In this document: positions 8,360-35,200 of the stretch, in pieces
Layout: each line of letters starts with the position of its first letter
Numbering within the stretch: position 1 is the stretch's first letter
Source: Spirochaetia bacterium
GTDB lineage: Bacteria > Spirochaetota > Spirochaetia > UBA9216
DNA: 64,000 bases
Direction of reading: 5' to 3'
NCBI GenBank assembly: GCA_963675665.1
Contig: OY776510.1
Span: forward strand, 576,001-640,000
Notes under the pieces: model-generated
Database searches by the model: none
Told to the model about the DNA's origin: nothing
Seen by the model: the letters and a program-made list of their open reading frames with translations, nothing else
Position numbers and translations under genes: made by a program

Positions 8360-10687
8360 ATGTTATTTCTCAAAAAAATCCCATTATTTTTAATACTGAT
8401 ATTCTTATTATTTTCATGCGGTAATGAGAACAAGATTATAACAGAGCAAAATAACATTCAGGAACCAGTATTTTCATCGGAAGAACCAAAACAACCCGAC
8501 AATCCTCCTGTTGAGGTAACAACCGAAAAGCAACAGGCAATTATTACCTTTCTGACCGGCGACGTGACAAGACTGTCCGACAGCGAACAGGTTTTCGCAG
8601 AGATAGGGGACCAATTGTCGTTAAATGATACAATCCGGGTTAACGCTGATTCATACTGTGAAATTCAATTCGGGAACCGCGCCGTAATCAGGGTTGAAGA
8701 AAACACGGACCTTGCTTTAAGCTCGCTTCACCTTGAACAGGGGTATTCAAAAATCGGCATTGAACTTACAGCAGGCTCCATTCTCTGCAAGGTTGAAAAA
8801 CTGGCCAAAGACGAACGCTTCAGGGTTTCTACCGAAACAGCGGTATGCGGGGTCCGCGGGACTGAATTCAGAGTAAGCAGCAGCCCGGTAAAAACCGGGA
8901 GCTCCGTAAAGAAAACCGTTCTTTCCGTACAGGAAGGGGCTGTAGCCGTCACACCTCCCGCACTTGACGTTGAAAAGCTTGTCGCTTCCGTGAACGAAAA
9001 AACCGAAGCGGTTACAGAAATGCTTGAAAAAATCGAATCGTCAGCTGTTGTTGTTCAGGCAGATGAAGAAATTGATCTCACTGAAGACGTATTTGAACAG
9101 GTCGCGGAAACAGTTGAAAAAATAACCGAAGTTATCAGTATTATAGCAGCTTCCGAAGAAGAAACCGTAGTTTCAGAAAAACTGCTTGAACTTCAAAATC
9201 ACACGGAAGAGGCTTCAGCAGCTGTAAAAGCCCCGCCGGCTGAAATCAGGAAAATATCGGTAGAGAATTCCGAAAAGCTGAAAGCTCTCAAGGATGTAAG
9301 GATAATTAATCTTCCTGTAAAGACGATTTCGGAAAATGAAAAAACAGAAATCCCCGTCGTAAAGACGACTTCCGTATATACGCTGAACGTGACGGTGGAA
9401 CCCGCCGATTCCAATATAATATTTAATTCAAAACCGATTGGAACAGGCAGTTTTTCCGGTATTTTTGAGGAAGGGGAAACCCTTGTTATTGATTTTACCC
9501 ATGAAGGATATGAAAACCGGCATTATGAGATAACGGTATCCGCCGCAACCGAAGGACACCACAGAATCATTCTCGACCGGCTTCCTGAGGTTGAAAAGAC
9601 ACAGACGAAGCCCGGGCCCGTTGAAATTAAACCTGAAACTTCCCAAATTAAACCTTCGCCTGTCGCTGTCGAATCGGTTGAACCGGAACCTGAGCCCGAG
9701 CCGGAACCAATCGAAGCATTCATCACTGTTTCATCAGGCACCCTTACAGGTTCAGTCTCAGCAGATTCTGATTTGTTTTATGTTGCCGATTACAACGGAA
9801 CAGTCACAGCAATAACGCCTGAAGGCAATATTGCCTGGAAAATAAAAACGGAAAACAACTCTGTGGAAAATTCCTTCCCGTCTGCCGGCGAAGGATTGCT
9901 GTGCTTTTCAGGCGCTGCCGAATATATAATCCTGAACGGATCCTCAGGCCGGGTAATAAGCAAAAAACCCCTTGATGCGGAATCAGCTCATATTTTCGGA
10001 AGGCGCCTGGTGCCTACAAAAATCGGGCTGCTTCTTCCGACGAACAACAGCATCAGGATCCTTAACCCTTCAGACGGCAGTGAGACAAAAACAATCACGC
10101 TGCCTTCCGCCTCCGGAATGACTCCCGCTTTTTATAACGGGAAACTTCTTTCCGTTGATGTACATGGAACCTTTATTGTAATAAATCCTGCCGACGGAAG
10201 TATCTTAAGCAGCATTCCCACCGGGGCCGACCAGCCGATTGCACTGAGCATAACAATAAACAACGGTTCAGCTTTTTTTGCGGGAAGAAAGGGGACTGTT
10301 GTCTGTATAGATTTAAACAGCAACCGAGTCTTATGGGAAAAACAATTGCCGGGAGACAACCAGGTTTTCACAGATATTATCTGCAGCAGAACGGCAGCTC
10401 ATGTCTTCTCAAAAGGAAAGATATTCAGTCTTGATCTTAAAACCGGAAAAGAAATATTCAATGCCGCTGAAGACGCTTCCGCACCTGCGACCGTTTATAA
10501 AAACAACCTGGTTTACGGAAGCAATAAGGGAAAAATTATCCTGGCCGATGCATCCAACGGTGTCATCGTAAAAGAGCTGGATATAGATGGAATAATATCA
10601 ACACGGCCGGCAGTACTTGACGACAGAATTGCAGCGGGAACAGAAAGCGGAAAGTTTTTGATAATCAACCCTGAGGCTGTTCACTGA
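8360..10687 (+). CDS. Lipoprotein with FecR-like domain, PEGA-like domain, Pro/Glu linker and PQQ-like (BamB-type) beta-propeller
   Basis: LFSC lipobox; TAVCGVRGTEF; EPEPEPEPEP linker; repeated G-x-x-x-W propeller blades. Confidence 0.8.
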   Translation: MLFLKKIPLFLILIFLLFSCGNENKIITEQNNIQEPVFSSEEPKQPDNPPVEVTTEKQQAIITFLTGDVTRLSDSEQVFAEIGDQLSLNDTIRVNADSYCEIQFGNRAVIRVEENTDLALSSLHLEQGYSKIGIELTAGSILCKVEKLAKDERFRVSTETAVCGVRGTEFRVSSSPVKTGSSVKKTVLSVQEGAVAVTPPALDVEKLVASVNEKTEAVTEMLEKIESSAVVVQADEEIDLTEDVFEQVAETVEKITEVISIIAASEEETVVSEKLLELQNHTEEASAAVKAPPAEIRKISVENSEKLKALKDVRIINLPVKTISENEKTEIPVVKTTSVYTLNVTVEPADSNIIFNSKPIGTGSFSGIFEEGETLVIDFTHEGYENRHYEITVSAATEGHHRIILDRLPEVEKTQTKPGPVEIKPETSQIKPSPVAVESVEPEPEPEPEPIEAFITVSSGTLTGSVSADSDLFYVADYNGTVTAITPEGNIAWKIKTENNSVENSFPSAGEGLLCFSGAAEYIILNGSSGRVISKKPLDAESAHIFGRRLVPTKIGLLLPTNNSIRILNPSDGSETKTITLPSASGMTPAFYNGKLLSVDVHGTFIVINPADGSILSSIPTGADQPIALSITINNGSAFFAGRKGTVVCIDLNSNRVLWEKQLPGDNQVFTDIICSRTAAHVFSKGKIFSLDLKTGKEIFNAAEDASAPATVYKNNLVYGSNKGKIILADASNGVIVKELDIDGIISTRPAVLDDRIAAGTESGKFLIINPEAVH

Positions 10688-10703: not shown

Positions 10704-12326
10704 TTAATTCCCGTTTATCCTGTTCAGCTCTTCGTTGAGGATTTCTATCTGGGCTTTATTCTCTGCTCCTATGGCTTCAAGTCCGGATGATTCCTCTACA
10801 ATTATTTCACCGAGTCTTTTTAACGATTCTATATTCTCTTTTGTCTGATCAACAGCTTTTTTAATATCATCAATACTCTGGTTGCCGTTGTCTATTTCAT
10901 CTTTCATCGATGAAAGCGATTGTTGAACGATATCATTCGAATTACGCAGGTTCGTTACTGAATCGGATATCGAATCGGTACCGGCTGACAGTTCAACCAT
11001 GCTTCGGACAATATCCGACAGAGATTGTCCCATATTGGTAATCTCATTTATCAGGCCGGAAAAAACCTTCTGCATTTCATGAGCGGCCTGATTTGAATCT
11101 TCGAAATGTTCATTATTGCTGGTAATACTTTTTCTTATTGCTTCCGAGTTATGCGCTGTCTCCTCGGACAGTTTTCGGATCTCCTCGGCTACAACAGCAA
11201 ACCCCTTGCCCGCCTCACCGGCGTGGGCGGCTTCAATAGCGGCGTTCATTGCAAGCATATTCGTCCTGCTTGAAATTACTTCGATTACTTCTATAATTTC
11301 AAGAATGTCGTCCGTCGATTCCGACAGTCTGTTCAGGGAATTCAGCGAATCTTCAAGCTTGCCTTCACCTTTCCGTGCAGCTTCATTCAGACGGTCCACC
11401 TGCCCCAGTTTCTGTTCTGCAAGCCGGCTTACAAAGGAGATCTGGGCCAGAATCTGTTCTACCGCTGCCGACGACTGGTTTATTGCCTCGGTCTGAAGCT
11501 GACTTTTTTCGCTTACCTTTTTCCCGGATTCCATTATCTGCATATTGGAACTGCCGCCCCGGTCGGTTGAGTTTTTAAGATCTTCTACAATTTTTCCAAT
11601 ATTGCCCAATTTGGCAGAAATATCTCCGGCGCTTCTGCTTGTTGACTCTGCTGCAGACATCAGTTTTTCACCGACATCAAATGAGGCTCTCATTTCATCA
11701 ATAACACCGTTTATCCGTTTAAAACTTTCTTCGGCCTTAACTTTTTCAGTCTGAGCCGCAGATATTGATCTGAGCTGCATTCTGAATACAAGAATCGCAA
11801 ACAGCGCCGCCATGAAAAGAAAAGTGATCGAAATAATAAACTGCCCGGTTATGTCCGTTTCACCATGTTCTTCGGCAAAAGGCATAAGCAGAATAAAAAA
11901 GAACAGGGCCTGCCCGGCAAGGCCCGCGCCTGCAACTATTATCATCTGCCAGATATTATAAGCCAGCAACGGAGCGACGCAAATGACGGATATTATATAG
12001 GTCGAAAACTTGTAAAGATCATCAAGTTCATTATGTTCCTGAATCATGAACATAATGAAAGCGGCTGCCGTGAAAAGTACTATGCTTACTATACTGCTGA
12101 TTTTATATTTTCCACGATACAGAATAATAATATTGACCGCAAGGATGGCAGATACTACAGCCTCTCCTGCCGCCACAGTATAGCTTGATTCAAGCAGGCG
12201 GATTGTTGCAAACATTATAAAGAATATCCCAAGAATAAAGTTTATCACCAACAGGGTGACTGCCTTTTCCTGAAAATTGCTGTTCTCAATTCTGTAAACG
12301 TCTTTAAGTCTGTTAATCGGGTTCAT
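10704..12326 (-). CDS. Methyl-accepting chemotaxis protein with multi-TM N-terminus
   Basis: [32 protein letters not shown] signalling hairpin; about 6 hydrophobic segments; start at 12326 inferred from TTGAAA-N17-CATAAT-N6-ATG. Confidence 0.92.
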
Positions 12327-12400
12327 ATATGAATTATGATTCATTGTCAAATTAATTTCAAATCAGATTGATAAAAAACCGGCTGTTTTTATCATGTCCC

Positions 12401-12450: not shown

Positions 12451-13443
12451 TCAGGCAGCCTGACTCTTCATATGCTGAATGTGGTCTATTGAAACAGCAA
12501 AAAGAAGGATCAAACCTTTGATAAGGTCCTGCCAGTAAACCGAAACATCAAGCAAAATAAGAGAACTGGTTATAATTGACAGAAGTGCTATCCCGAGAAT
12601 TGAACCGAAAACGGTGCCTTCTCCGCCGGTAAGACTCGCTCCGCCGATAACAGCGGCAGATATGGCAGTCATCTCGAGCCCTACGCCGAAACCGGGCGTT
12701 GATGCGCCGAAGCGGGACATATAGATAATGCCGGCAAGCCCGGACAGGGTACAACACAGAACGCTTACGCCTATCTTGACCTTTTTAACCCTGATGCCGG
12801 AGAAGATAGCTGCTTTTTCATTGCTTCCGGTATAAAAAACTTTTCTCAGAACCGTGGAATTCCGCAGCATATAATCGCTGACTACCACAATCACAAGAAA
12901 TATTATTATTACAAACGGAAAAGGTCCGATAGAACCCTGCCCTATAAACTTGAAACTCTGCGGCAGGGTAAAAAGGGACAATGGAGTTCCCTGGGTTATA
13001 ACAAAACATGCCCCGCGGGCTATCCCCATAAATGCCAGTGTCGTGATAAAATGCACCAGCCCTATTTTTGTAACAAGCAGCCCCTGGATTGCGCCTATAC
13101 CCGCACAAACAACCAGGGCAATGACACTTGCAACCCACGGATTAACCCCCACCAAAAAGAGTTTTCCCGCAATACACATAGCCAGACACATTACCGCGCC
13201 GACGGACAAGTCGATTCCGCCCAGAACCAGGATTACAGTCATTCCTACAACGACGATTCCTTCGGTTGCGAATGAAAGGAAAATAGCCTTCCAGTTGCTC
13301 CAGGTCATAAAATAAGGGGAAAGGAAGCTCATAAGAATACAGACAGCAGCGATGATCAGAATCAGCGTGCCTTCCCTGAAATTCTTAAATCTGTTGAACA
13401 GACTGATAATTCCGCCTGTTTTCATCTTAATATTTTCAACCAT
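12451..13443 (-). CDS. Sugar ABC permease (RbsC type)
   Basis: GGIDLSVG, GSNEKAAIFSGI (EAA loop), AVIGGASLTGGEG. Confidence 0.95.
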   Translation of the reverse strand: MVENIKMKTGGIISLFNRFKNFREGTLILIIAAVCILMSFLSPYFMTWSNWKAIFLSFATEGIVVVGMTVILVLGGIDLSVGAVMCLAMCIAGKLFLVGVNPWVASVIALVVCAGIGAIQGLLVTKIGLVHFITTLAFMGIARGACFVITQGTPLSLFTLPQSFKFIGQGSIGPFPFVIIIFLVIVVVSDYMLRNSTVLRKVFYTGSNEKAAIFSGIRVKKVKIGVSVLCCTLSGLAGIIYMSRFGASTPGFGVGLEMTAISAAVIGGASLTGGEGTVFGSILGIALLSIITSSLILLDVSVYWQDLIKGLILLFAVSIDHIQHMKSQAA

Positions 13444-13458
13444 AATTTATATTCTCCC

Positions 13459-14967
13459 TTATGCTCCGATCTTTTCCAGGCCGGAAGCCATGTGGATTAT
13501 TTTCTTTTCGTTTATATCGTTACCGGTAATAATACCGCAGTTGTCGCCTTCATGCATAACAAGCACGCGATCGCTCATCCCGATAAGTTCCGGCAGTTCG
13601 GAGGATATCATTATCACCCCTATTCCCTGACAGGTCAATTCGCGAATCAGCTTATGGATTTCTGCTTTTGCTCCGACATCAATACCCCGTGTAGGTTCAT
13701 CCATGATAACGACCTTCGGGTTTACCGACAACAGCTTTCCGATTAAAACCTTCTGCTGATTTCCACCCGACAGGGACGAAACATCCTGCCCCAGAGAACT
13801 GAATTTTACATTCAGTTTCTTCGTATATTCATCAGCCAGCTTTCTTTCCCTGCCGTTATCCACCATTCCGTTCACAGAGACGGCTTCCAGATTCAGGGCT
13901 GAAACATTCTTCTGAATTGACATCTCAAGAAATACACCCTCTACCTTTCGGTCCTCCGAGAGATATACTATTCCGTTTTCAATTGCATCACGGTAATCTC
14001 CGATACCGATACTATTTCCCTTAAAATAAATTTCTCCGCTTATTCTGGGGAAAAGACCGCATATGGATTTAACAACCTCGCTTCTTCCCGCGCCTATCAG
14101 ACCTGAAAGTCCCAGAATTTCTCCTTCATGAAGAGTAAACGATATATCCCTGAACCGATTTCCATCGGAAAAATTTTCTATTCTTAAAAGTTCTTCCTGC
14201 TCAGTACAATTGCCTTCAAATTTGGGCGGGTAAAGATCACTTATCTCCCGTCCGACCATCCTGCTGACGACCTCTTTTGAATTCGTCTTGTCGATATCCA
14301 GGCTTCCGCAGTATGTTCCGTCGCGCAGTATTGAAACCCTGTCGCATTGAGAAAAAATCTCAGCCATTCTATGGCTGATGTAAATCATGCTGATGCCATT
14401 TTTCTTAAGTTCATGCATGATCTTGAAAAGCGCTGTTGTCTCACTCTCGGTAAGCGCAGCAGTTGGTTCATCCAGAATGAGGATCTTGCAATTCAGCGAA
14501 AGAGCTTTTGCAATTTCAACTATCTGCTGATTCGAAATCGAAAGCTCACTGACCTTTTTCCTCGGATCAATATCGCCGAGCGGGGCAAGCGCCGTTCCGG
14601 CCCTCTTGTAGAGGTCCCTGTAATTTATAAAATTTTTTTCAGTACGGTTTATCTCCGACATGAATACATTTTCGGCCACCGTTACATGCTGACAAAGAGC
14701 AATCTCCTGGTGAACAAAGCCGATTCCGTACTGCTGTGCATCAAGCGGATTCCTGATGTTGACTTCTTCCCCGTTAATAAAGATCTGCCCCTCATCGGGC
14801 AGGTGAACACCGTCTATTATATTCATAAGAGTCGATTTACCTGCACCGTTCTCGCCGACCAGGGCGAGAACTTCTCCCTTCTTCAGAGTCAAATCAACCT
14901 TATCAAGGGCCCTTGTTCCGGGAAAATCCTTTACAATCCCTCTGACCTCTAATACAAATTCACTCAA
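13459..14967 (-). CDS. Sugar ABC ATP-binding protein
   Basis: GENGAGKST, LDEPT, LSGGNQQKV; TTG start at 14967 after GGAGG. Confidence 0.95.
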   Translation of the reverse strand: MSEFVLEVRGIVKDFPGTRALDKVDLTLKKGEVLALVGENGAGKSTLMNIIDGVHLPDEGQIFINGEEVNIRNPLDAQQYGIGFVHQEIALCQHVTVAENVFMSEINRTEKNFINYRDLYKRAGTALAPLGDIDPRKKVSELSISNQQIVEIAKALSLNCKILILDEPTAALTESETTALFKIMHELKKNGISMIYISHRMAEIFSQCDRVSILRDGTYCGSLDIDKTNSKEVVSRMVGREISDLYPPKFEGNCTEQEELLRIENFSDGNRFRDISFTLHEGEILGLSGLIGAGRSEVVKSICGLFPRISGEIYFKGNSIGIGDYRDAIENGIVYLSEDRKVEGVFLEMSIQKNVSALNLEAVSVNGMVDNGRERKLADEYTKKLNVKFSSLGQDVSSLSGGNQQKVLIGKLLSVNPKVVIMDEPTRGIDVGAKAEIHKLIRELTCQGIGVIMISSELPELIGMSDRVLVMHEGDNCGIITGNDINEKKIIHMASGLEKIGA

Positions 14968-14997
14968 TTTGTTCCTCCAGAAACGCTGTAGCAATGC

Positions 14998-15028
14998 TTA
15001 AAAAGGCCGCAGGCTTCTCTGCGGCCTT
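14998..15028 (-). terminator. Intra-operon hairpin after the SBP gene
   Basis: AAGGCCGCAG/CTGCGGCCTT stem followed by Ts on the minus strand. Confidence 0.65.
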
Positions 15029-15041
15029 AATCAGACAAAAA

Positions 15042-16121
15042 CTATTCGTTTATACCTTTGGTGCCTCTTTTCTTGAGATATTTATCCCAATAGAAGTAAT
15101 CAGCATTGTCTTTGGTTACAACTGCAAGTCCGTTATCAACAAAAGGTATTCCCATCGGGTTGTAACCGGCTGCTTCGAAATCATTCATCGGTTCAATCAT
15201 GTTCGGATGTGCTGCAAGATAAAGCATCAGCATTCCGTAGTAACCCTGTGTGCCCTGATTCGGGTTAAGAGCTGCATAGATATCGCCTTCTTTAAGCATA
15301 TCGAGAACCTTGGCATTGATGTCTACACACATTACCTTGATGCCGGTTCCGAGTTCCTTGGCCGCCTGTGCAGCGCCCATTCCTGAACTTGCTTCCGGCA
15401 TGAAAATACCACCGAGTTTCGGATGGGCCTGTGCCATGGTCATTACAGCCTGGTATGCCTTGTTCGGATCCTGGTTTGTTGCAGCTCTGGCAACTACCTT
15501 CATATTCGGATAAGTGCTTTCAATTCTGCTTACGAAAGATTTTACTCTCAGATCGTGGTTGTCCTGTCCCGGATTTTCAAGTACGGCTACTTCACCTTTC
15601 TCACCAAGAGCCTTGGCAATAGTATCGGCTGCATATTCACCTTCACGAACATTATCGGAAGTGATGTAGGAAACTCTCTTTGAGTTCGGAGAATCAGCGG
15701 CAAATGTAACAACAGGAATACCCATTTCGGCTGCTCTGTTGATAGGTTCAATAAATGCATCCGGATTCATCGGGTGAAGAAGAATACCGGCCGGTTTCTT
15801 TGCAAGAATCTGCTCAAATACTGCAAGCTGCTTGTTAACATCATACTCGGGAGTACCTGTATATACAGTTTTTACACCAAGCTGCCATGCACATTCTTTC
15901 ATCATTTCGTATACCGGGAACCAATATTCTACACCGGATACCATAACACACATATAGTAAGTTTCTGAAGGATCCCCGACAAACGGTGAATCTACACCTT
16001 CAGCCTCTGCGGCCGCGGAGGCTGCAGCTTCTTCTTTTGCACAGCCGGAAAACGCAAATGTTGCAATGATTGCCAGTATGATTAGAACAACAATCATACT
16101 TTTAGTTCTCATGTTTTTCAT
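15042..16121 (-). CDS. Sugar ABC substrate-binding lipoprotein
   Basis: FSGC lipobox, Ala-rich linker, periplasmic-binding-protein motifs (GIPVVTF, ITSDN); ATG after GGAGAG. Confidence 0.9.
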   Translation of the reverse strand: MKNMRTKSMIVVLIILAIIATFAFSGCAKEEAAASAAAEAEGVDSPFVGDPSETYYMCVMVSGVEYWFPVYEMMKECAWQLGVKTVYTGTPEYDVNKQLAVFEQILAKKPAGILLHPMNPDAFIEPINRAAEMGIPVVTFAADSPNSKRVSYITSDNVREGEYAADTIAKALGEKGEVAVLENPGQDNHDLRVKSFVSRIESTYPNMKVVARAATNQDPNKAYQAVMTMAQAHPKLGGIFMPEASSGMGAAQAAKELGTGIKVMCVDINAKVLDMLKEGDIYAALNPNQGTQGYYGMLMLYLAAHPNMIEPMNDFEAAGYNPMGIPFVDNGLAVVTKDNADYFYWDKYLKKRGTKGINE

Positions 16122-16163
16122 AAACTCTCCTTTAAAGTTTTTCATGACATTCGTTAATTATAT

Positions 16164-16179
16164 TGCAACTATCGTGCCA
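16164..16179 (-). promoter_or_regulatory. sigma54 (-24/-12) promoter
   Basis: Minus strand TGGCACGATAGTTGCA, a perfect TGGCAC-N5-TTGC consensus. Confidence 0.9.
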
Positions 16180-16252
16180 ATCATGCCGATTCAGGATAAG
16201 TTACCGTTTTGAAAGAACTTAGCAGAACGGAATTTTCCTGATTAACAGAATG

Positions 16253-16303
16253 TGTTCAGATTTTGGACAAAAGGCCGGGTTTACACTGTACAATTGAAGT
16301 ACA
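16253..16303. promoter_or_regulatory. Two TGT-N11-ACA enhancer sites
   Basis: TGTTCAGATTTTGGACA (16253-16269) and TGTACAATTGAAGTACA (16287-16303), 74-124 bp from the -24 element, next to a Fis-HTH bEBP gene. Confidence 0.65.
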
Positions 16304-16358
16304 CTTGAACGTTTTCGCTTTAATGCTTTTTGTATCCATGGTAAAGTATTGCCAGACA

Positions 16359-17654
16359 ATGAATAGAATTCTTATTATAGATGATAACCGGAAAATACTC
16401 GACACGCTTTCACGAAATTTCCTTTCGGAGGGCATTGAATGCCGCACGGCTGCCAATACCGCCGAAGGCATTGAAGCGCTGCAATGCTGCCCGATAGATC
16501 TGGCGCTTGTCGATATACGCATAGGAGATGAAAGCGGAATTGATGCGCTTATCGAAATAAAAAAACTGATACCTGATATCCCGGTTTTAATGATAACCGG
16601 GTTCGGTACAATTGAAACAGCTGTTGAAGCCATAAAACTGGGCGCCAGCGAATATATAAAAAAACCTGTTCGTTTTCCGGAGCTTCTGAAACAGGTAAAA
16701 CTCTTTCTTAAGGACGAACCGAGCGAGCTGCCTGCAATTCCGAACCTGCAGACGAAAAATCCGCAGATGATAGCATTGATAAAAAAAGCGATCAAACTTG
16801 CCCAGTCGAATCTTTCGGTACTGATACTCGGAGAAAGCGGAACCGGAAAAGAGGTTTTCGCCGATCTTATTCACCGAAATTCTCCGCGAACTGACAATCC
16901 CTTTCTGAGGGTAAACTGCGCAGCTTTTCCCGATACCCTTCTGGATAATGAGCTTTTCGGGCATGAAAAAGGGGCCTATACAGGCGCTGATGATAAATTC
17001 CAGGGTGTTTTTGAACGTGCTGATACAGGGACCCTCTTTCTTGATGAACTCGGCGACATGCCGCTGGCCATTCAGGCCAAAATCCTCAGGGCAATACAGG
17101 AACATGAAATAAGAAGACTGGGCGGCAAGGATATTATTAATATAGATGTAAGGTTTATAGGCGCAACTAATCATAATCTAGAGCAGATGGTAGCTGAAAA
17201 AAAATTCCGTCAGGATCTTTACTACAGGCTTAACTGTGCCGCCCTTAAGCTTCCGGCTTTACGGGAACGAAAAGAAGACATACCTATTCTGACGGAATAT
17301 ATTCTCAACCAGGTCACAACACCGGAACGGCGGGTAAGCCTTGCTCCGGAAACCATGGAGACGCTTCTGTCATATGACTGGCCGGGAAATATTCGTGAGC
17401 TTAAGGCCGCACTGAATTACGGAGCGACAATCTGCACCAACTCGGTAATAAGACCGGAAGATCTTCCCATGGGTGATCATCCGGTAAAAATGGCAAGCAG
17501 CGGACTTTCTCCCGGGCAGGCTGTCGAGAGAGAGCTTTTTTTAAAAACCCTGATAAAACACGGGTTTAATAAAAAAAAGGCGGCTGAAGAGCTTGGAATC
17601 TCACGAACGACATTATACAGCAAAATGAACAAATACGGTATCAATGACCAGTAA
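16359..17654 (+). CDS. sigma54-dependent response regulator (NtrC family)
   Basis: REC domain (IIDD, LVDIR), GESGTGKE, ELFGHEKGAYTGA, WPGNIREL, Fis HTH LGISRTTLY. Confidence 0.95.
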   Translation: MNRILIIDDNRKILDTLSRNFLSEGIECRTAANTAEGIEALQCCPIDLALVDIRIGDESGIDALIEIKKLIPDIPVLMITGFGTIETAVEAIKLGASEYIKKPVRFPELLKQVKLFLKDEPSELPAIPNLQTKNPQMIALIKKAIKLAQSNLSVLILGESGTGKEVFADLIHRNSPRTDNPFLRVNCAAFPDTLLDNELFGHEKGAYTGADDKFQGVFERADTGTLFLDELGDMPLAIQAKILRAIQEHEIRRLGGKDIINIDVRFIGATNHNLEQMVAEKKFRQDLYYRLNCAALKLPALRERKEDIPILTEYILNQVTTPERRVSLAPETMETLLSYDWPGNIRELKAALNYGATICTNSVIRPEDLPMGDHPVKMASSGLSPGQAVERELFLKTLIKHGFNKKKAAEELGISRTTLYSKMNKYGINDQ

Positions 17655-19482
17655 CGAACATGAGAACATAATAAAACTGAATAATATTTCCCTTAAATAC
17701 GGCCAGTTCAACGCTCTTAAAAACATAGACTTCACAATCAGAAAATCGGAGATTCACGCTGTAATAGGAGAACACGGGGCCGGAAAATCATCTCTGGCAC
17801 AGATTCTCAGCGGATACATAAAACCCGACGACGGTATTTTTCTTTGGAAAAATAATCCGGTCCAGCTGTCTTCACCCCAGGAAGCCAAGGAACTTGGTAT
17901 TGAGATTGTGATGCAGGAAATTGAACAGTATGAGCGTCTTTCCCTGTCGCAGAATCTCTTTGGAAACAGCCCGGATTTTTTTAAAAAGAAGTTTTTCACA
18001 CGCAAGGAGCTGAACAGAAAAACCGATGAATATTTCGGTTCGCTGGGTTTTTCATCCTTTTCCGGCGCCCAGAAAATTTACAGCCTCAAGGATACCGAAA
18101 AAGTTCTGCTTGAATTGTTAAAACACCTGCTGCCCCGACCCGATCTGCTGATACTGGACGAGACCTTCGAAAAAATGACCGCAGTGGATCTTAACAAGAT
18201 GATTCCTGTTCTGAAAGAACGAAAGGCTGAAGGTCTTGGAATCCTCTTTATTACTCACCGAATCGATGATGTTTACACCTTTGCCGATCGCGTTACCGTT
18301 ATACGAAACGGCAGAATTCTGACAACAGAATCGGTTAAAAACATCGATAAAATCAATCTTATCAAACTGGCCTACACCCAGGTTGTTCAGGAAAGCAGTC
18401 TCGATACGACAACACAGGAGTTCTACCAGCTTCTTAAATACAACAGGGCAATTCTTGAAACCCTGCCCGTTAACCTTATTGTCGTGGATGAAAACAGGAT
18501 TCTCAGACTGCTTAACAATAACGCTAAAAACTATTTCAGCATCGGAGACACCCCGGCTCTCGGCATACCTCTTAAAAAGCTTGATATCATCACTTCAAAT
18601 GATAAATTATACGAACAGATCCGGGCATCAATGGACAAGCGCAGGCTTGAGACCTTTACTACAAGACTGAAACATCACGACGGAAGGGAAACAATAAATT
18701 TTGTCACCGTCTACCCTATTTATGACGGTGTTTTGTTTATAGGCAGTATGATAATAATAAGCGACATTACGGAACAGGAGAGCCTGCGCGAAAAGCTTGA
18801 TTTTTCCGAACGCCTTGGATCCGTCGGACTGCTGGCGGCAGGAGTTTCGCATGAAATAAATAATCCTCTTGAAATCATAATGAACGAGGTAGATTATCTT
18901 CGAAAGACCTTGCCCGAGGGCGAACAACAAACAGTGCTTGATAATATTGAAGAAGAAGTCGGCAGCATTGAACAGATCGTAAGCAGCCTTGCAACCTTTT
19001 CAGACAGCTCGGCGCCGAAAACTGAAGACCTTGATCTCACGCCTCTTCTTACGCACATCCTGAACCTTGTCAAACATAATGCCGTACACAGGAATATCAT
19101 AATCAGTTTCACCGCGCCGGATGAAAAGATGATGCTAAGCTGCAACAGAACCGAAATCAAACAGATAATACTCAACCTGATAAGAAACAGTTTTGAAGCA
19201 ATTCATACCGACGGTATGCTCGAAGCAAGTCTTTCAAAAACAGTAATTGACAACAAGTCCTGGATTATGCTGATTTTCAGAGACACCGGACCCGGCATTA
19301 ACGATGATGATGCAAAAAAAATCTTTCTTCCGTTCTTTTCGAAAAAAACCGCTTCCGGTAATAATATGGGCCTTGGACTTTCTGTTTCCTACGGCATTAT
19401 AAACAAAATGAACGGTAAAATCAGCGTAGAGAACCATCCCGATGGCGGCTGCAAATTCACCATTCTGCTTCCTGCATCATAA
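17644..19482 (+). CDS. Fusion protein: sugar-ABC-ATPase-like NBD + PAS + histidine kinase (HisKA/HATPase)
   Basis: GEHGAGKS, IVMQE, LLILDE, ITHR; PAS (ILETLPVNLIVVD..ISDITE); H-box HEINNPL; N-box NLIRNS, DTGPG, GLGL; no TM segment. Confidence 0.9.
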   Translation: MTSNEHENIIKLNNISLKYGQFNALKNIDFTIRKSEIHAVIGEHGAGKSSLAQILSGYIKPDDGIFLWKNNPVQLSSPQEAKELGIEIVMQEIEQYERLSLSQNLFGNSPDFFKKKFFTRKELNRKTDEYFGSLGFSSFSGAQKIYSLKDTEKVLLELLKHLLPRPDLLILDETFEKMTAVDLNKMIPVLKERKAEGLGILFITHRIDDVYTFADRVTVIRNGRILTTESVKNIDKINLIKLAYTQVVQESSLDTTTQEFYQLLKYNRAILETLPVNLIVVDENRILRLLNNNAKNYFSIGDTPALGIPLKKLDIITSNDKLYEQIRASMDKRRLETFTTRLKHHDGRETINFVTVYPIYDGVLFIGSMIIISDITEQESLREKLDFSERLGSVGLLAAGVSHEINNPLEIIMNEVDYLRKTLPEGEQQTVLDNIEEEVGSIEQIVSSLATFSDSSAPKTEDLDLTPLLTHILNLVKHNAVHRNIIISFTAPDEKMMLSCNRTEIKQIILNLIRNSFEAIHTDGMLEASLSKTVIDNKSWIMLIFRDTGPGINDDDAKKIFLPFFSKKTASGNNMGLGLSVSYGIINKMNGKISVENHPDGGCKFTILLPAS

Positions 19483-19612
19483 TCAAACTCATCCTGATAA
19501 CCTTTCATGGATAGATAATCACCGAAAAGTATAATTTTGTAATATAAAATTTGTTTTGTTATATAAATTCCTCTTTACGGTTTGTCGCTTCTGTTATATA
19601 CTGAAAATTGTC

Positions 19613-20518
19613 ATGGATATTGTCAACAACAAACTGAAACATATTCTGCCTACAGGTTTTCTCTGTGCGGAAGTTCCCTACTGGGTAAAAGAGGAAGGCG
19701 CTGTCTATTTCTCCGATACCGAAAACCCGAGAATTGCAAAATATACACCGAAAACTGAAGAGCTGGAAATCATCTATGTTCCGTATAATTTTCAATGTCT
19801 TGCCAAATGCGAAAACGGCAGCTGGATCGGAACGGTCACGAACGGCGTGGTCATATGGAACCAGAAGAAGAACACTTGCCGGTATCTCGGAAATCCTGAA
19901 TACGGAAAAGCATCATTTTATCTGAATGACGGAACGGTCGACAGGAAAGGACGGTTTCTCTTCGGCTCGTTTGACATGGACAACCTTGAAGGGCACGGCG
20001 GCTCCGTTTACATGGTCGATCAGAATCTTGAAATAAAACGGCTTGCATCAGGCTTTTCCGTCTGCAACGGAATGGTTTTCAGCCGCGACAATAGAAAATT
20101 TTATATGAGCGAACAATTCGGCGGCCGGATACTGGAGTTTGACTGGGATGAAGAAAGGTGTGAATTATCAAATCAAAAAGCCCTTTATAATTTGCCTGCA
20201 GACAAAGGGCTGCCTGACGGTCTGATAATGGATTCGGAGGGGATGCTCTGGGTTGCACACTGGTGGGGATGGCAGCTTTCAAGAATATCTCCCGAAGGCT
20301 CGGTACTGGCCGAAATACCGATGCCGGTAAAAACTCCTACCTGCATGGCATTTATCGGAGAGAAACTTGATAAATTATTTATAACCACTGCAATTAAAGC
20401 TGTTGATGAGCAGGACCTTAAAAAAGGACCGCAGGCGGGAGATATATTTCAAATTGAACTGGATGTACCCGGGATTGAAGAAACCCGGTTTAAATATCTG
20501 AACAACGGAGGAAAATAA
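19613..20518 (+). CDS. SMP-30/gluconolactonase family sugar lactonase
   Basis: AEVPYW, LNDGTVDRKGR, CNGMVFS, GLPDG, PTCMAF. Confidence 0.88.
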   Translation: MDIVNNKLKHILPTGFLCAEVPYWVKEEGAVYFSDTENPRIAKYTPKTEELEIIYVPYNFQCLAKCENGSWIGTVTNGVVIWNQKKNTCRYLGNPEYGKASFYLNDGTVDRKGRFLFGSFDMDNLEGHGGSVYMVDQNLEIKRLASGFSVCNGMVFSRDNRKFYMSEQFGGRILEFDWDEERCELSNQKALYNLPADKGLPDGLIMDSEGMLWVAHWWGWQLSRISPEGSVLAEIPMPVKTPTCMAFIGEKLDKLFITTAIKAVDEQDLKKGPQAGDIFQIELDVPGIEETRFKYLNNGGK

Positions 20519-21264
20519 TGGGTGATTCATTAAAAGGAAAAGTTGCTGTAATCAGCGGTGTCGCATCCGGATTCGCAAAAGCAACAGCAGAACTTTTTGC
20601 AAAAAAGGACCAGTGCAGCCTTGTGCTTATCGACATCGACGAAAAAGGACTGGAGGCCACCACAGAGAACTGCAGAAAATCAGGATCTGATGTACTGGTT
20701 ATTCAGGGGGACGTAATAAAGAGCGGTTTCTTTGATGATGTTGCAGCACAGACAAAAAGCAAATTCGGCAAATGCGATTGCCTGATAAACTATGCCGGCG
20801 GAGCAGTGAGGCTGGAACCTATAGAAACCATGACGGATGAGATATATGACAAGGTCATGAATCTAAACATGAAAAGCACACTGAGCTCATGCCGTGCATT
20901 TACCCCATTGCTGAAAACCCAGGGATACGGAAGAATAGTTAATGTTTCTTCGGTATGCGACAGACGCTCATGGCCCACCTGGTCGGTATATTCGGCAGCC
21001 AAGGCCGCTGTTAATGCTTTCAGCAAATGCCTTTATACCGAATTAAGACCGCATGGTATCGGAGTAACTCTACTGGTTCCCGGCGGTTCAAATACGGGAT
21101 TTCAGAAGGCTGAAAATGTTGATAAATTCGAATGGGATGAATCAATGGCTGTCCGCCCGGAGCATTTCGCCGATATGGTCTATGCAGCATGCACCCTGAC
21201 TAAGGGAGGCTGCGTATCCGAGATGGCTGTCTACGGCCTTGCCCAGGATATATCGGGGTTCTAA
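20518..21264 (+). CDS. SDR oxidoreductase
   Basis: SGVASGFA, NYAG, YSAAK; translationally coupled to the lactonase gene. Confidence 0.88.
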   Translation: MGDSLKGKVAVISGVASGFAKATAELFAKKDQCSLVLIDIDEKGLEATTENCRKSGSDVLVIQGDVIKSGFFDDVAAQTKSKFGKCDCLINYAGGAVRLEPIETMTDEIYDKVMNLNMKSTLSSCRAFTPLLKTQGYGRIVNVSSVCDRRSWPTWSVYSAAKAAVNAFSKCLYTELRPHGIGVTLLVPGGSNTGFQKAENVDKFEWDESMAVRPEHFADMVYAACTLTKGGCVSEMAVYGLAQDISGF

Positions 21265-21353: not shown

Positions 21354-22136
21354 ATGAGTGAGCATAACGAAGGCAAAGGCAAATATATTATACCCAATCT
21401 CTGGAGAGCTATAGAGCTTCTTGAATATCTGGCGGATAATCCCGAAGGACTCACAATCAGCGAGCTTGCAGATGCGCTGAGCCTTCCGACTAATTCCGTT
21501 TTCAGAATTCTGCGAACATTATCTGCAAAAGAGTATGTTATTCAAAAGCACAAACGCTACAGTGTCAGCAGCAAATTGTTTGCCCTCGGCGCTCATGCAA
21601 TAGCAGAAGAATCGCTTTTTGAAAAAATAACTCCGGTCATGAGGGATCTGCGCGACGAGCTTAAGGAAACTGTGATATTTGGAAAACTTTCAGGTCATAA
21701 CGGCGTGATTCTTGAACAGATGCAGGGACTTTTCCCTGTAAAAGTCGTTGTAGAAGTAGGATACAATTTTCCGCTTCACTGTTCCGCACCTGCAAAGGCC
21801 ATTATGGCCTTTCTTCCCGAACCAGAAAAACAGACGGTACTTGAACATTGCACTTTTCAAAAATATACGGAAAACACAATCACTGACAGAAAAAGTTTAA
21901 TCCATGAACTTGAACAGGTTGCCTTAAACGGATACGCACTGGATATGGAAGAAGCCGATTATGACGTACGCTGTATAAGCGCTCCCATTCTGAACGTCAG
22001 AGGTTATCCGGTTGCAGCGTTGTGGATTACCGGCCCCGTATCACGCTTATGCACAGAAACATGCCGAAAGTATGCCGATATACTAAAAGTAACCTGCAGC
22101 GAGGTTTCCCGGTCCATAGGATTCACCCACGCATAA
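21354..22136 (+). CDS. IclR family transcriptional regulator
   Basis: N-terminal HTH, PLHCSAPAKA, GYALDMEE..VRCISAPI. Confidence 0.92.
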   Translation: MSEHNEGKGKYIIPNLWRAIELLEYLADNPEGLTISELADALSLPTNSVFRILRTLSAKEYVIQKHKRYSVSSKLFALGAHAIAEESLFEKITPVMRDLRDELKETVIFGKLSGHNGVILEQMQGLFPVKVVVEVGYNFPLHCSAPAKAIMAFLPEPEKQTVLEHCTFQKYTENTITDRKSLIHELEQVALNGYALDMEEADYDVRCISAPILNVRGYPVAALWITGPVSRLCTETCRKYADILKVTCSEVSRSIGFTHA

Positions 22137-22139
22137 AAT

Positions 22140-23090
22140 TTAAATCAGCTTTTCTACAGCTTTTGCCGTTTGCTCATCAATAATAAGATAATCAAGTATA
22201 CCCGTCTTCAGCCCCGCGACTATCGAATACTGTTTTTCAATACCGGCGACAAGGCAAACCACTTTTTCCGTATTTCCAAGCTGTTCGGGGGTACATGCAA
22301 GCAACAGCTCCGAATCTGGCCCTTTCAGGAATTTGCCCTCTGCGGAAACAGGCCACCCGCAGATGTCTCCGATCGCGTTTTTAAATTCGGGTGAATCCCT
22401 GAATTTATCGCTATTTTTGCCGGATTCTCCAAGCACACTGCCGGAAGATTTTTCCCCGATTGAAATAACAGCGATATTAAGTTCACTCCACAACCGGCTT
22501 ATCCGCTGCATCATCGCGCTGCTTTTATACAGCTGCAAATCATCTTCAGAGTCCGCTATTGCCGGCGCGTGAAGGAAATGCGGCGTTGCATTAAGCTTTT
22601 CCGCAAAATCCCGTACCATTTCATTCAGCTGATAGCGCTTCATGGGTCTGTTGCTTCCTCCGATCAGCGGTACGGCATTTATTTTCAGATAATTATGATC
22701 ACTGTAATACTGAGACATAAATTCATAACATGTCCGGCCCCAGGCAACCCCGACCGTATCCTGTTCATTAAGCAAATCATTGAAAACATCTACTGCACGT
22801 TCAGCAACAAGCCGGATGAGCATTTCCGAATTTTTAACTGCAGTAGGTACTACATAGCAATGCTTAAGACCGAAGCATTGCTCAAAAAGACTGCTTAGCT
22901 CGTCATTATTTCCCATCGGGTTTCTTAATTTGATTTCAACAAGACCTTCGTTTCTTGCTTCAGTCAGAAACATGGAAATTGAGGATCTTGACCTGTTTAC
23001 TACTGCCGCTATCTCATCCTGTTTTTTACCTTCCAGGTAATACATCCTGGCAACATTATACAACAGCTGTTTATCAACTTTGGTTTTCAT
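22140..23090 (-). CDS. SorC/DeoR(B. subtilis)/LsrR-family sugar-binding regulator
   Basis: VARMYYLEGKKQDEIA HTH, GVAWGRT, AIGDICG, LIIDE. Confidence 0.9.
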   Translation of the reverse strand: MKTKVDKQLLYNVARMYYLEGKKQDEIAAVVNRSRSSISMFLTEARNEGLVEIKLRNPMGNNDELSSLFEQCFGLKHCYVVPTAVKNSEMLIRLVAERAVDVFNDLLNEQDTVGVAWGRTCYEFMSQYYSDHNYLKINAVPLIGGSNRPMKRYQLNEMVRDFAEKLNATPHFLHAPAIADSEDDLQLYKSSAMMQRISRLWSELNIAVISIGEKSSGSVLGESGKNSDKFRDSPEFKNAIGDICGWPVSAEGKFLKGPDSELLLACTPEQLGNTEKVVCLVAGIEKQYSIVAGLKTGILDYLIIDEQTAKAVEKLI

Positions 23091-31343: not shown

Positions 31344-32840
31344 TTATACCGATCCTATAGCGGCATGCATAACCATTTCCTGATCGGCCTCTTCCTTTAA
31401 CAGGTCAGCGGTCAGTTTTCCCTCATGCATTACAAGAATTCTGTCTGCAAGATGAAAAACTTCAGGCAGCTCGGAAGATATTACAATAATCGACATGCCG
31501 CGATCCGCTAGTTCTGAAATTATATTATGGACCTCGGCTTTGGCCCCTACATCAATTCCGCGTGTAGGCTCATCCAGAATGAGAAGATCCGGTTCAAGGG
31601 CAAGAGATTTTGCAATTACAACCTTCTGCTGATTCCCCCCCGACAGGGTTTCCACAACCTGCTCGCGGGAACTGACCTTGGTTTTAAGATCGGAAATGTA
31701 CCGATCGGTTATTTCCTTTTCAGCTGATGCATTTATAAGTTTCAACAGGCTGCTTACTTTATCATGGATACTGAGAGTTGTGTTCTCACGCACCGTCATC
31801 GGCAGAACCAAACCAAGGTTCTTTCGATCTTCGGGCAGATAAGCAATCCTGGCCGCAACAGAATCTCGCGGGGTTCTGATTGAGACCTCCCGTCCTTTTA
31901 CAAACATCCGGCCGCCGGTTTTTTTCTCAGCTCCTATTATCAGTTTGGCCAGCTCAGTCCGCCCTGCCCCTACCAGTCCGGCAAGCCCCACAATCTCTCC
32001 TTTTCGAATTCTGAAAGATATATTATTAATATTCGGGGGGCCGCAGAGATCTTCCGCTTCAAAAACTACATCTTCGGACGGTTTAGCCTTTCTTTCAGTA
32101 TAAAACCTGTTCAGCTCACGACCGACCATCAGTGATATCAGTTTCTGCTCATCAGCTTCTTTTGTCAAAATATTTCCGGCATTTTCACCATCCCGGAGGA
32201 TAACGACCCTGTCCGTTATTTCAAGAACTTCTTCAAGTTTATGTGATATAAAAATAATTGATATTCCCTGTGCTTTTAAATCGCGCATAATTTCAAACAG
32301 GTTTACTATCTCTTTCTCGGCAAGCGCGGATGTGGGTTCGTCCATAATCAGAACCTTTGTTTTATATGCAAGGGCTTTGGCTATTTCTATCATTTGCTGC
32401 TGGGCAACGCCAAGACTCCCCACAAGGTCATCCGGATGAATATCTATTTTTAATCTTGAAAAGAATTCCTCCGCTCTCTGCCGGGTGTCTTTATAAGAAA
32501 ACAAACCGCCTTTCGTCCTGTTTTCATTTCCGAGAAAAATGTTCTCCATGGCCGAAAGGTTCGGACAAAGATTGAATTCCTGGAAAATAATATTTATGCC
32601 CTGCTCGTATGCATCCCGCGTGGAATGCAGATCCAGAACCTTGCCGTTATAATAGATGTTTCCGCTGTCGGGTTTATAAACCCCGGTAAGCACCTTCATC
32701 AGTGTCGACTTACCGGCCCCGTTTTCTCCCAGCAAACAGACAATTTCATTTTCTCCGATATTGAAGTCTACATCAGACAGAGCTTTTACTCCCGGAAATT
32801 GTTTGCTGATCCCTTTCATTTCAACAAGATATTCACCCAT
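31344..32840 (-). CDS. Sugar ABC ATP-binding protein
   Basis: GENGAGKST, MDEPT, LSGGNQQKV. Confidence 0.95.
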   Translation of the reverse strand: MGEYLVEMKGISKQFPGVKALSDVDFNIGENEIVCLLGENGAGKSTLMKVLTGVYKPDSGNIYYNGKVLDLHSTRDAYEQGINIIFQEFNLCPNLSAMENIFLGNENRTKGGLFSYKDTRQRAEEFFSRLKIDIHPDDLVGSLGVAQQQMIEIAKALAYKTKVLIMDEPTSALAEKEIVNLFEIMRDLKAQGISIIFISHKLEEVLEITDRVVILRDGENAGNILTKEADEQKLISLMVGRELNRFYTERKAKPSEDVVFEAEDLCGPPNINNISFRIRKGEIVGLAGLVGAGRTELAKLIIGAEKKTGGRMFVKGREVSIRTPRDSVAARIAYLPEDRKNLGLVLPMTVRENTTLSIHDKVSSLLKLINASAEKEITDRYISDLKTKVSSREQVVETLSGGNQQKVVIAKSLALEPDLLILDEPTRGIDVGAKAEVHNIISELADRGMSIIVISSELPEVFHLADRILVMHEGKLTADLLKEEADQEMVMHAAIGSV

Positions 32841-32846
32841 AACAGC

Positions 32847-33824
32847 CTACCTGTTCTTTATTCTGTCGATTACCGCCGCAATTACAATAATAAGGCCCAT
32901 GATTGCAGTCTGCCAGTATGCTGAAACCTTCATCAACACCAAACCGTTTCTGATAACTCCCATAATTGCTGCGCCTATCACTACGCCAAGAACAGAACCG
33001 GACCCGCCCATCAGCGAAGTACCCCCTATTACAGCTGCAGCAATTGCATCAAGTTCCCAGCCGTCTCCGGCTGATGTCTGTGCCGAACTGAAGCGGGCGA
33101 CAAGAATAATTCCTGTAATTGAAGACATCAGCCCCGAAATTCCATATGCCAGGCATTTAATCCTTTTTATATTAATTCCGGAAAGCCTGGTTGCTTCTTC
33201 GTTTCCTCCGATCGCATAAATCCTTCGTCCGAACACCGTAAACTTCAAAATGAAATTCATAACTATTGCAACAACTATTGCTATGATGACCGGAACCGGA
33301 ATTCCCAATAAAGAGCCCTGTCCTATAAACATGAATTTTTCATTAATCTCTTCAACCGGCCAGCCTTTTGTAATAATCCAGATTGCCCCCCGGGCCATAC
33401 TTAGCATGCCGAGAGTGACAATAAACGGGGTGATCCCCACATATGAAACAAGTATCCCGTTTATCATTCCTACACCGAAACCGGTGCCCATTCCTACAAG
33501 TACAGCCGCAAACGGACCTGCGCCCGCAGCCATTGCAAGGCCGCAGGTAACCCCGCTGATTCCTATTATGGAACCGACGGAAAGATCTATTCCCGCTGTC
33601 AGAATAACAGTAAATACACCGAAAGCTGTAATGGCGACAAACGATATCTGCCGGGCGACCCTGTAAAGGTTTCCCGCTGTAGCAAATTTCGGTGCGATTA
33701 TAGTAATAATCAGCATAATTCCCAGCAAAGCCAGAAAAATCGCTGATTCTTTTTGTCTGATAAATCTAATAAGCAGGTTTTCTTTTTTAACCTGCGCTTG
33801 TATCCCGGCTTTGTTTTCAGCCAT
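32847..33824 (-). CDS. Sugar ABC permease
   Basis: AGIDLSVG, GGNEEATRLSGI, ELDAIAAAVIGG. Confidence 0.95.
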   Translation of the reverse strand: MAENKAGIQAQVKKENLLIRFIRQKESAIFLALLGIMLIITIIAPKFATAGNLYRVARQISFVAITAFGVFTVILTAGIDLSVGSIIGISGVTCGLAMAAGAGPFAAVLVGMGTGFGVGMINGILVSYVGITPFIVTLGMLSMARGAIWIITKGWPVEEINEKFMFIGQGSLLGIPVPVIIAIVVAIVMNFILKFTVFGRRIYAIGGNEEATRLSGINIKRIKCLAYGISGLMSSITGIILVARFSSAQTSAGDGWELDAIAAAVIGGTSLMGGSGSVLGVVIGAAIMGVIRNGLVLMKVSAYWQTAIMGLIIVIAAVIDRIKNR

Positions 33825-33843
33825 TATAACCTCCTGAAGACAC

Positions 33844-34021: not shown

Positions 34022-34044
34022 TCCGGAGGTTCAGTTACCGAAGG

Positions 34045-34992: not shown

Positions 34993-35025
34993 AAAAAAAC
35001 CTCCAAATTTTATTTATCTATAAAT

Positions 35026-35172: not shown

Positions 35173-35200
35173 TTCCATTCCGGGGTCCGGCTTAACACAA

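Follow-up and report, generated by a model that had tools for sequence, protein, structure and literature searches.

A soluble histidine kinase with an input domain like an ABC transporter ATPase, encoded beside CUT2 sugar importers in spirochaetes and other bacteria

In a window of 64,000 nucleotides from the genome of a Spirochaetia bacterium (contig OY776510.1, positions 576,001 to 640,000) we describe a two-component system whose sensor histidine kinase (17644..19482, plus strand) is soluble, has 612 residues, and begins with a nucleotide-binding domain (NBD) of the ATP-binding cassette (ABC) type that resembles those of CUT2 sugar importer ATPases. PAS, HisKA and HATPase_c domains follow. 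The kinase gene stands beside a CUT2 transporter, suggesting that the cell may read the transporter itself in order to switch on its sugar uptake genes, and the system would be a previously undescribed form of transporter-coupled two-component sensing. To our knowledge, such sensing is known only between separate proteins (Bce, Pst/PhoU/PhoR, DctA/DcuS), and the route by which the state of the transporter reaches the kinase is debated. The reading that we put forward, and to which we give an even chance, is that the input of this kinase would be an ATP-binding, poorly hydrolysing ABC domain docked on the cognate CUT2 permease. Searches of the full-text literature, which do not cover subscription-only papers, found no published fusion of an ABC NBD to a histidine kinase, in agreement with the preliminary description of this locus, made from the sequence alone, which knew of no characterised example.

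The open reading frame (ORF) of the kinase is open throughout. Pfam matches in its translation are ABC_tran at residues 25-175 (E 1e-17), PAS_4 at 271-379, HisKA at 395-455 (E 4.9e-11, above the cut-off) and HATPase_c at 502-611 (E 3.8e-20). Against NCBIfam, residues ~2-265 align to positions ~2-258 of the ~500-position CUT2 ATPase models (YtfR, LsrA, AraG, AlsA, XylG, MglA and RbsA; E 7e-42 to 3e-33), the best ABC models outside CUT2 are far weaker (UrtD, 1e-25), and residues 257-611 align to AtoS. These matches, an AlphaFold2 (AF2) model and the comparisons described below delimit an NBD like the N-terminal one (NBD1) of CUT2/RbsA-type ATPases (residues 8-244, 17665..18375; Pfam, NCBIfam, column comparison and AF2), a linker (245-276, 18376..18471; alignment, paralogue conservation and AF2), a PAS domain (277-374, 18472..18765; Pfam and AF2) and, by Pfam, the helices of the dimerisation and histidine phosphotransfer (DHp/HisKA) domain (376-450, 18769..18993) and the HATPase_c catalytic domain (461-610, 19024..19473), all on the plus strand. 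The translation contains GEHGAGKS, IVMQE, LLILDE, ITHR and DETFEKM in the NBD, and the H-box HEINNPL with the phospho-acceptor His403 (codon 18850-18852). In 31 sequences of the kinase's own subfamily (40-80% identity) the H-box is invariant from H403 onwards, as are N511, N515, D547, G549, G551, G576 and G578 of HATPase_c. With an H-box in DHp, an HATPase_c domain with N and G boxes, and an adjoining response regulator, the protein would be classed as a HisKA-type histidine kinase.

No transmembrane helix was found in the kinase by hydropathy: the Kyte-Doolittle mean over 19 residues peaks at 1.77, in the stretch 354-372, which in the AF2 model is a β hairpin of the PAS domain. That model (mean pLDDT 78) shows, in order, a confident NBD (8-244), a low-confidence tether, a PAS N-cap helix, the PAS domain, two DHp helices and the catalytic domain. 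The tether between the NBD and the PAS N-cap comprises residues 245-256 (pLDDT <50), and the N-cap is the helix 255-273. Among the kinase paralogues of this genome the best conserved parts are the helix that closes the NBD (236-244, IDKINLIKLAYTQ) and the N-cap (EFYQLLKYN.AIL), with a mean identity of 0.40, while the least conserved are the Q-loop/helical part of the NBD (0.17) and the PAS domain (0.24). The motifs and the soluble NBD-PAS-HisKA-HATPase layout read in the preliminary description are thus borne out by translation, Pfam, NCBIfam and hydropathy.

The architecture is not peculiar to this protein. A search of 5.8 billion proteins yielded homologues among whose 120 best matches all have 594-635 residues, span 96-100% of the query and contain PF00005, PF00512 and PF02518; the source names among these listed matches include metagenome-assembled genomes of Spirochaetales and Spirochaetaceae, Candidatus Vecturithrix and Moduliflexus (KSB3), and Desulfomarina. 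We also searched 1.84 billion cluster representatives (50% identity) with a query of 251 residues spanning the NBD-PAS junction, and obtained 98 matches at E<=1e-30. Among the best 150 junction matches, 108 are proteins of 585-646 residues matching at the same position, 40 are shorter fragments and 2 have another layout. By source names and record titles, the family is found in spirochaetes, KSB3, Planctomycetota and Desulfobacterota. Its distribution within the phylum of the window's genome is patchy: in a sample of 201 genomes, with 6 candidates scored per genome, at least 9 had a match at E<=1e-55, in at least 7 of the 105 genera. The window's own genome (5.15 Mb in one contig) holds eight full-length kinase paralogues with 29-44% identity, their frames intact and free of stops. 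CUT2 sugar importers are greatly expanded in it, with 70 two-NBD CUT2 ATPases and 85 CUT2 permeases, and eight of its 17 receiver-type sigma-54 activators are paired with NBD kinases. The preliminary description had called for a search for the architecture and its gene neighbourhood, naming a lack of homologues or a chimeric assembly as outcomes that would speak against it; what we found are homologues of the same layout, and we rejected an assembly chimera on the architecture shared by the 120 best homologues, the conserved junction and the eight intact paralogues.

The three genes facing the kinase and its regulator make up a complete CUT2 (RbsABC-like) sugar importer by Pfam and NCBIfam, all on the minus strand: a substrate-binding protein (SBP) of the Peripla_BP_4 type with the lipobox FSGC (15042..16145), a complete ATPase with two fused NBDs, RbsA/XylG-like (13459..14994), and an RbsC-like permease of 330 residues matching BPD_transp_2 (12451..13443). 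On the plus strand, an NtrC/AtoC-type response regulator (16359..17654; receiver, sigma-54 AAA+ and Fis-type helix-turn-helix domains, by Pfam and NCBIfam) precedes the kinase, whose gene overlaps the end of the regulator ORF, at 17654, by 11 bp. We gathered 26 modules from at least 13 genomes, eight from the window's genome and 18 from 17 loci elsewhere. The outside loci comprise 7 full-length matches from a scan of genome contigs and 10 regions from the phylum search. In the contig scan 603 of 621 candidate stretches proved to be relatives and 80 were kept, of which 7 are full length; the other 73, ordinary PAS/HisKA kinases, were excluded from the neighbourhood counts.

In all 26 modules the gene directly upstream of the kinase encodes a sigma-54 activator, and a CUT2 ATPase and/or permease is found in the same stretch in 24 of them. 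The transporter is mostly divergent from the kinase, at times on the same strand (upstream or downstream) or convergent. The link of kinase, activator and CUT2 transporter noticed at the single locus recurs across the modules, and in six of the eight from the window's genome a promoter of sigma-54 type faces the neighbouring operon. One module elsewhere (locus L099, 5703-8784) has a Peripla_BP_4 and BPD_transp_2 transporter with a single-NBD ATPase of 265 residues, followed by GatZ-like and PfkB genes. The window's genome also holds 54 matches to BPD_transp_1 permeases and 16 TRAP DctP binding proteins, and no BPD_transp_1 or TRAP system pairs with a kinase module, one TRAP binding protein excepted. 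The DctP gene in question (4808169-4809002, plus strand) lies downstream of a kinase paralogue (4805213-4806988), ~1.2 kb away, and that module includes a divergent CUT2 operon as well. In a FastTree tree of the 70 CUT2 ATPases of the genome the eight kinase-adjacent ones are scattered, with 8 label changes against a shuffle mean of 7.7, and well-supported branches alone force at least 5 changes. This scatter indicates several separate events in which different CUT2 lineages gained or lost the kinase-activator pair.

The regulator matches Response_reg, Sigma54_activat (E 3.4e-67) and HTH_8, and has the GAYTGA loop. Its ORF opens at a TTG at 16263, and the start is probably the ATG at 16359. 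A sigma-54 -24/-12 promoter, TGGCACGATAGTTGCA (16164..16179, minus strand), lies ~20-45 nt upstream of the two candidate start codons of the SBP, and the window has no other exact match to TGGCAC-N5-TTGC. Two TGT-N11-ACA palindromes, candidate activator sites, stand upstream of TGGCACGATAGTTGCA at 74 and 108 bp (site 2, 16253..16269, and site 1, 16287..16303). With 19 TGT-N11-ACA sites in the window against 9.6 expected, the pattern is weak evidence by itself. The orthologous locus of another genome (identities: kinase 76%, activator 71%, SBP 82%, ATPase 83%, permease 90%) retains 15 of the 16 bases of the promoter, with the -24 element exact and GC changed to GT in the -12 element, and both pairs of TGT-N11-ACA half-sites, the bases between the half-sites differing. 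The overlap of the two genes, the promoter and the paired sites had all been noted in the preliminary description, and the promoter and sites are kept in the ortholog. A search for TGGCAY-N6-TGCW finds 41 sites on both strands of the 5.15 Mb genome; six of the eight modules of this genome have such a site facing the neighbouring operon and a seventh has a version with one mismatch. The genome has a match to rpoN (Sigma54_DBD, E 3.8e-57; 914059-914541, minus strand); the matched stretch contains one TGA, and its open frame is 470 residues long. The enrichment of promoters at the modules, together with the promoter and palindromes kept in the ortholog, makes it a well-supported inference that the activator controls the neighbouring operon through sigma-54.

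The state of the ABC domain was assessed by a column-by-column comparison of 38 NBDs from kinases with those of the ATPases of the window's genome (70 NBD1 and 70 NBD2 domains). Kept in the kinases are the A-loop aromatic residue (Tyr19), Walker A, the Gln of the Q-loop (Gln91), Walker B (Asp172-Glu173) and the H-loop (His205), and the 31 sequences of the kinase's own subfamily preserve GEHGAGKS, Gln91, Asp172-Glu173 and a near-invariant His205. The signature is lost: position 149 is variable in the kinases, whereas it is Ser in 54% of NBD1 and in 100% of NBD2 domains, and the region reads LKDTEK in the window's kinase and L-x-LSDR in most of its relatives, where the Ser is shifted by two residues from the canonical position. 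The D-loop of the kinases reads ETFEKM or EALEKL and has lost its starting Pro-Thr, and AYTQ replaces the MVGR linker motif of CUT2 ATPases. The neighbouring ATPase provides a direct comparison. Its NBD1 has DEPTAAL and a degenerate signature, LSISNQQ, and its NBD2 has the canonical LSGGNQQ together with a degenerate Walker A (GLIGAGRS) and a degenerate H-loop. The altered D-loop reported earlier (DETFEKM in place of DEPTAAL) can be read in both translations. The earlier account of the missing signature holds in that the second NBD, bearer of LSGGNQQ, is absent; it overlooked that an RbsA-type NBD1 has a degenerate signature of its own, which the kinase has lost too.

Across the 26 module kinases, all of which have the H-box, G-x4-GK[ST] is present in 25, Asp172 in 26, Glu173 in 23, Gln91 in 22 and His205 in 15, and the four canonical features are all intact (with a strict Walker A, GxxGxGK[ST]) in 9. 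From this pattern the kinase NBD probably binds ATP and hydrolyses it poorly. With the P-loop kept and the catalytic residues decaying, the domain fits ATP-dependent docking or closing, and fits a working motor poorly. Like the ATPases of the RbsA/XylG/MglA type, whose N-terminal NBD is matched by residues 2-265 with the same domain boundary, the kinase has the core motifs of PF00005. It lacks the LSGGQ signature and the D-loop (SALD) used for the ATP sandwich dimer and, unlike CUT2 ATPases, which have two fused NBDs, the second with LSGGNQQ, it has one NBD, with signature, D-loop and MVGR replaced, fused to PAS-HisKA-HATPase_c. Judged by its sequence, the input domain is a derivative of the NBD1 of CUT2 ATPases and not a member of that ATPase family.

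Does this domain touch the transporter? In solved importers the Q-loop and helical subdomain of the NBD meet the coupling helix (PMC7658222). NBDs that dock on the same coupling helices should share similarity in the contact region beyond that of unrelated pairs. In a pooled test the cognate ATPase (that encoded beside the kinase) ranked on average 27.1 out of 81, a value reached by 65 of 10000 label shuffles; when the alignments were pairwise, the average was 23.7 and 8 shuffles in 10000 reached it. Since pooled ranks could reflect amino-acid composition shared within a genome, we re-ranked the cognates against backgrounds of the same genome. The final test used 15 kinase/neighbour-ATPase pairs from 5 genomes, with within-genome backgrounds of 70, 20, 23, 18 and 6 CUT2 NBD1 domains. 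For kinase residues 91-147 the mean rank fraction of the cognate NBD1 was 0.284, a level reached in 28 of 20000 random draws (p ~0.001). The corresponding fractions were 0.411 for residues 8-90 (2238 of 20000) and 0.460 for residues 148-233 (5955 of 20000). An effect of the class of ATPase was rejected, given that non-cognate kinase-linked ATPases from the same genome averaged 0.494 (n=54) and cognates 0.294 (n=13). Neither the NBD2 of the ATPases nor similarity over the whole NBD gave a cognate signal, ranks in the latter case lying near the mean. The rank signal, modest in size, is specific both to the region and to the cognate.

Complex prediction with two copies of the permease and NBD residues 1-250 gave scores of 0.34, 0.34 and 0.37 against 0.24 for the control; this is non-specific and tells neither way on binding. 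No solved chain matched the permease at E<=0.001, so that contacts could not be mapped from a CUT2 structure, and the closest solved relatives of the kinase NBD are LivG-type and other single NBDs.

A number of results weigh against docking. The 15 pairs behind the rank signal are in part related to one another, and several versions of the test had been run before it emerged. In the window's genome alone, with 7 pairs, it is not significant (1922 of 20000 draws as low), and there the cognate beats other kinase-linked ATPases in 29 of 50 comparisons. A Mantel test of kinase-region against permease similarity over 18 modules gave r 0.13 for the helical part, 0.15 for the linker and 0.19-0.31 for most others, hence no region-specific coupling. 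Every transporter-linked module that could be judged retains its own ATPase gene, with which the kinase NBD would need to compete or alternate. For two of the 26 modules the stretch examined shows no transporter; these two face sugar catabolic genes. One of these (4312147-4320900) faces two Zn-dehydrogenases, a PFL-like glycyl-radical enzyme and a radical-SAM activase, behind TGGCACGTCGATTGCT, with no ABC permease nearby, and the other lies beside LacI, araB, araD and araA. Close orthologues of the permease (62-73% identity) are found among proteins whose sources name them as Vibrio, Hahella, Mesorhizobium and others, where the kinase may or may not be present. Finally, position 53 of the NBD, Lys in 81% of CUT2 NBD1 domains, is Met, Leu, Gln or His in most of the 31 subfamily sequences and Lys in two; among the 26 module kinases it is Lys or Arg in 13. 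CUT2 permeases belong to a fold family other than that of MalF/G. Position 53 would match the Arg of MalK that pairs with the Glu of the EAA loop. The parts seen of PMC7658222 and PMC12136057 do not state a contact between MalK Arg47 and the EAA Glu, and the argument carries little weight. On balance, the scatter of the linked ATPases in the CUT2 tree and the similarity to the cognate favour a physical involvement of the NBD with its cognate transporter, the Mantel test being neutral.

On the docking reading, which the preliminary description had already proposed, the system would work as follows. In the firmer part of the scheme, the kinase would phosphorylate the co-transcribed NtrC-type activator, which would bind the two TGT-N11-ACA sites and open the sigma-54 promoter of the divergent SBP-ATPase-permease operon. 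Upstream of this, the kinase dimer may offer two NBDs, on flexible tethers of ~12 residues, to the cognate CUT2 permease at its coupling helices, where they would replace, or alternate with, the real ATPase. NBD C-termini in solved importers point away from the membrane, and it is there that the PAS-DHp dimer would hang. Docking of sugar-loaded SBP outside would change the permease and thereby the closure of the ATP-bound NBDs against each other, a change which the PAS N-cap helices would relay to the DHp helices, turning autophosphorylation on. The receptor inducing the importer would then consist of a small basal number of SBP and permease molecules, and the PAS domain may add a cytoplasmic input. 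In this fuller form the kinase dimer, the CUT2 permease dimer and the SBP would constitute a receptor complex (a 'transceptor') in which ATP-loaded, signature-less NBDs stand in for the motor and their closure leads to autophosphorylation, a proposal that we advance tentatively and rate as less likely than not.

The alternative that deserves most attention is that the kinase senses in the cytoplasm, its PAS domain binding the imported sugar or a catabolite and its NBD, out of contact with the transporter, acting as an ATP-gated dimerisation module or an energy-state module that sets the gain of the kinase, the link with CUT2 being inherited. The two modules beside catabolic operons without a transporter would be expected on these terms, the PAS domain is among the most variable parts of the paralogues, as differing ligands would make it, the P-loop is kept in 25 of 26 kinases, and all kinase regions co-vary weakly with the permease, as inheritance of whole modules would produce. 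It does not account for the fact that all 24 transporter-linked modules are CUT2 in spite of the many type-I ABC and TRAP systems of the genome, and the scatter of the linked transporters in the CUT2 tree speaks against it; it leaves unexplained that the resemblance to the cognate ATPase is confined to the Q-loop/helical part, and eight energy sensors in one genome would be redundant. We regard it as rather unlikely, if possible. The pure ATP/ADP sensing offered as an alternative in the preliminary description does not explain eight paralogues in a genome on different operons, and the catalytic residues decay where the P-loop is kept.

A different partner for the NBD would be the transporter ATPase itself, for instance an NBD1 mimic meeting the LSGGNQQ of NBD2 and so reading or throttling the ATPase cycle. 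The halves are there for it, in that the kinase NBD keeps the cis half of an ATP site (Walker A, Walker B and, in the subfamily, the H-loop) without a signature, while NBD2 of the ATPase has the canonical signature with degenerate Walker A and H-loop, and the kinase does resemble the cognate NBD1. Nevertheless, a covalently joined NBD1-NBD2 would out-compete a free domain, the similarity falls in the helical subdomain and not in the parts that form the NBD-NBD interface, and the H-loop is lost in 11 of the 26 family members, all of which makes this pairing improbable. That the protein is an assembly chimera or a functionless, decaying fusion is scarcely credible, with the same architecture in hundreds of independent assemblies, the frames of the eight paralogues intact, and motifs and linker strongly conserved.

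The system as we read it has partial parallels among known ones. In the Bce modules of Firmicutes (BceAB with BceS/BceR), an ABC transporter signals to a kinase and its own genes are induced (PMC6978683; PMC10314905). The likeness lies in a kinase without a ligand-binding sensor domain of its own, a signal from an ABC transporter and, as proposed here, induction of the transporter genes. The Bce kinase is a separate intramembrane protein touching the permease through transmembrane helices, the transporter is of the exporter type and serves peptide resistance, and the regulator is not a sigma-54 activator, whereas here a soluble kinase with its own NBD is combined with an SBP-dependent CUT2 importer and a regulator of the NtrC type. 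The features said there to define Bce, a two-transmembrane intramembrane kinase and a BceB-type permease with a large extracellular domain, are absent: the kinase has no transmembrane helix and the permease is a BPD_transp_2 protein of 330 residues. In the Pst/PhoU/PhoR system (PMC6978683), an SBP-dependent ABC importer signals through its NBD, PstB, to a PAS-containing kinase without a periplasmic sensor, and the NBD-then-PAS order seen here resembles a covalent version of PstB-(PhoU)-PhoR. The Pho system differs in having separate proteins and an adaptor (PhoU), a membrane-anchored PhoR, a working ATPase in PstB and an OmpR-type output. DctA/DcuB-DcuS, in which the transporter is co-sensor of the histidine kinase that induces it (PMC6978683), involves secondary carriers, a membrane kinase with its own periplasmic PAS sensor and no ABC domain.

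A closer comparison lies within the window. A second sigma-54 CUT2 system (31344-38732, minus strand) consists of a HAMP-HisKA-HATPase kinase of 739 residues (36513-38732), an activator (35201-36520), a sigma-54-like site, TGGCATAAACCTTGC, at 35027-35041 and, downstream, an SBP (34045-34992), a permease (32847-33824) and an ATPase (31344-32840). The first ~300 residues of this kinase have no Pfam match and are followed by HAMP, the usual layout of a membrane sensor. It shares the output logic of the NBD-kinase module: its activator is likewise of the NtrC type, a sigma-54-like site is present, and its operon encodes SBP, permease and ATPase of the same family. The NBD-PAS kinase takes the place of such an ordinary sensor of extracellular sugar, with a cytoplasmic ABC domain instead of the membrane-sensor part.

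Some further features of the locus were recorded. The SBP gene has two in-frame ATGs, at 16145 and 16121, both kept in the ortholog; GGAG precedes the second only, and translation likely starts there. The mature SBP would begin at the Cys of the lipobox and is probably a lipoprotein. Immediately downstream of the kinase come genes for an SMP-30/gluconolactonase-like protein (19556-20518) and a short-chain dehydrogenase (20518-21264), followed by two regulator genes, one IclR (21354-22136) and one SorC-type (22140-23090, minus strand). These neighbours hint at an aldose, an aldonolactone or a related sugar acid as the substrate of the importer. The permease end of the operon adjoins two genes, one for a FecR and PQQ_2 β-propeller protein of 775 residues (8360-10687) and one for a methyl-accepting chemotaxis protein (10704-12350, minus strand).

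With a transporter-type domain and a kinase in one polypeptide, the family offers a simple, soluble and genetically linked system in which to test signalling from transporter to kinase. Uncharacterised as it is, it is large enough to study (~100 clusters at 50% identity, in several phyla), and a comparison is built in, since sister CUT2 operons in the same genome are served by a conventional membrane kinase. Docking, if correct, would be a new way of carrying information across the membrane without a transmembrane sensor, and would lend itself to the modular design of sugar biosensors. If the receptor complex is correct as well, the scaffold of an ABC importer would have been re-used as a transmembrane signalling device, wired covalently to a two-component kinase. 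Should docking prove wrong, the family would still represent a new kind of input domain in histidine kinases, one that binds ATP.

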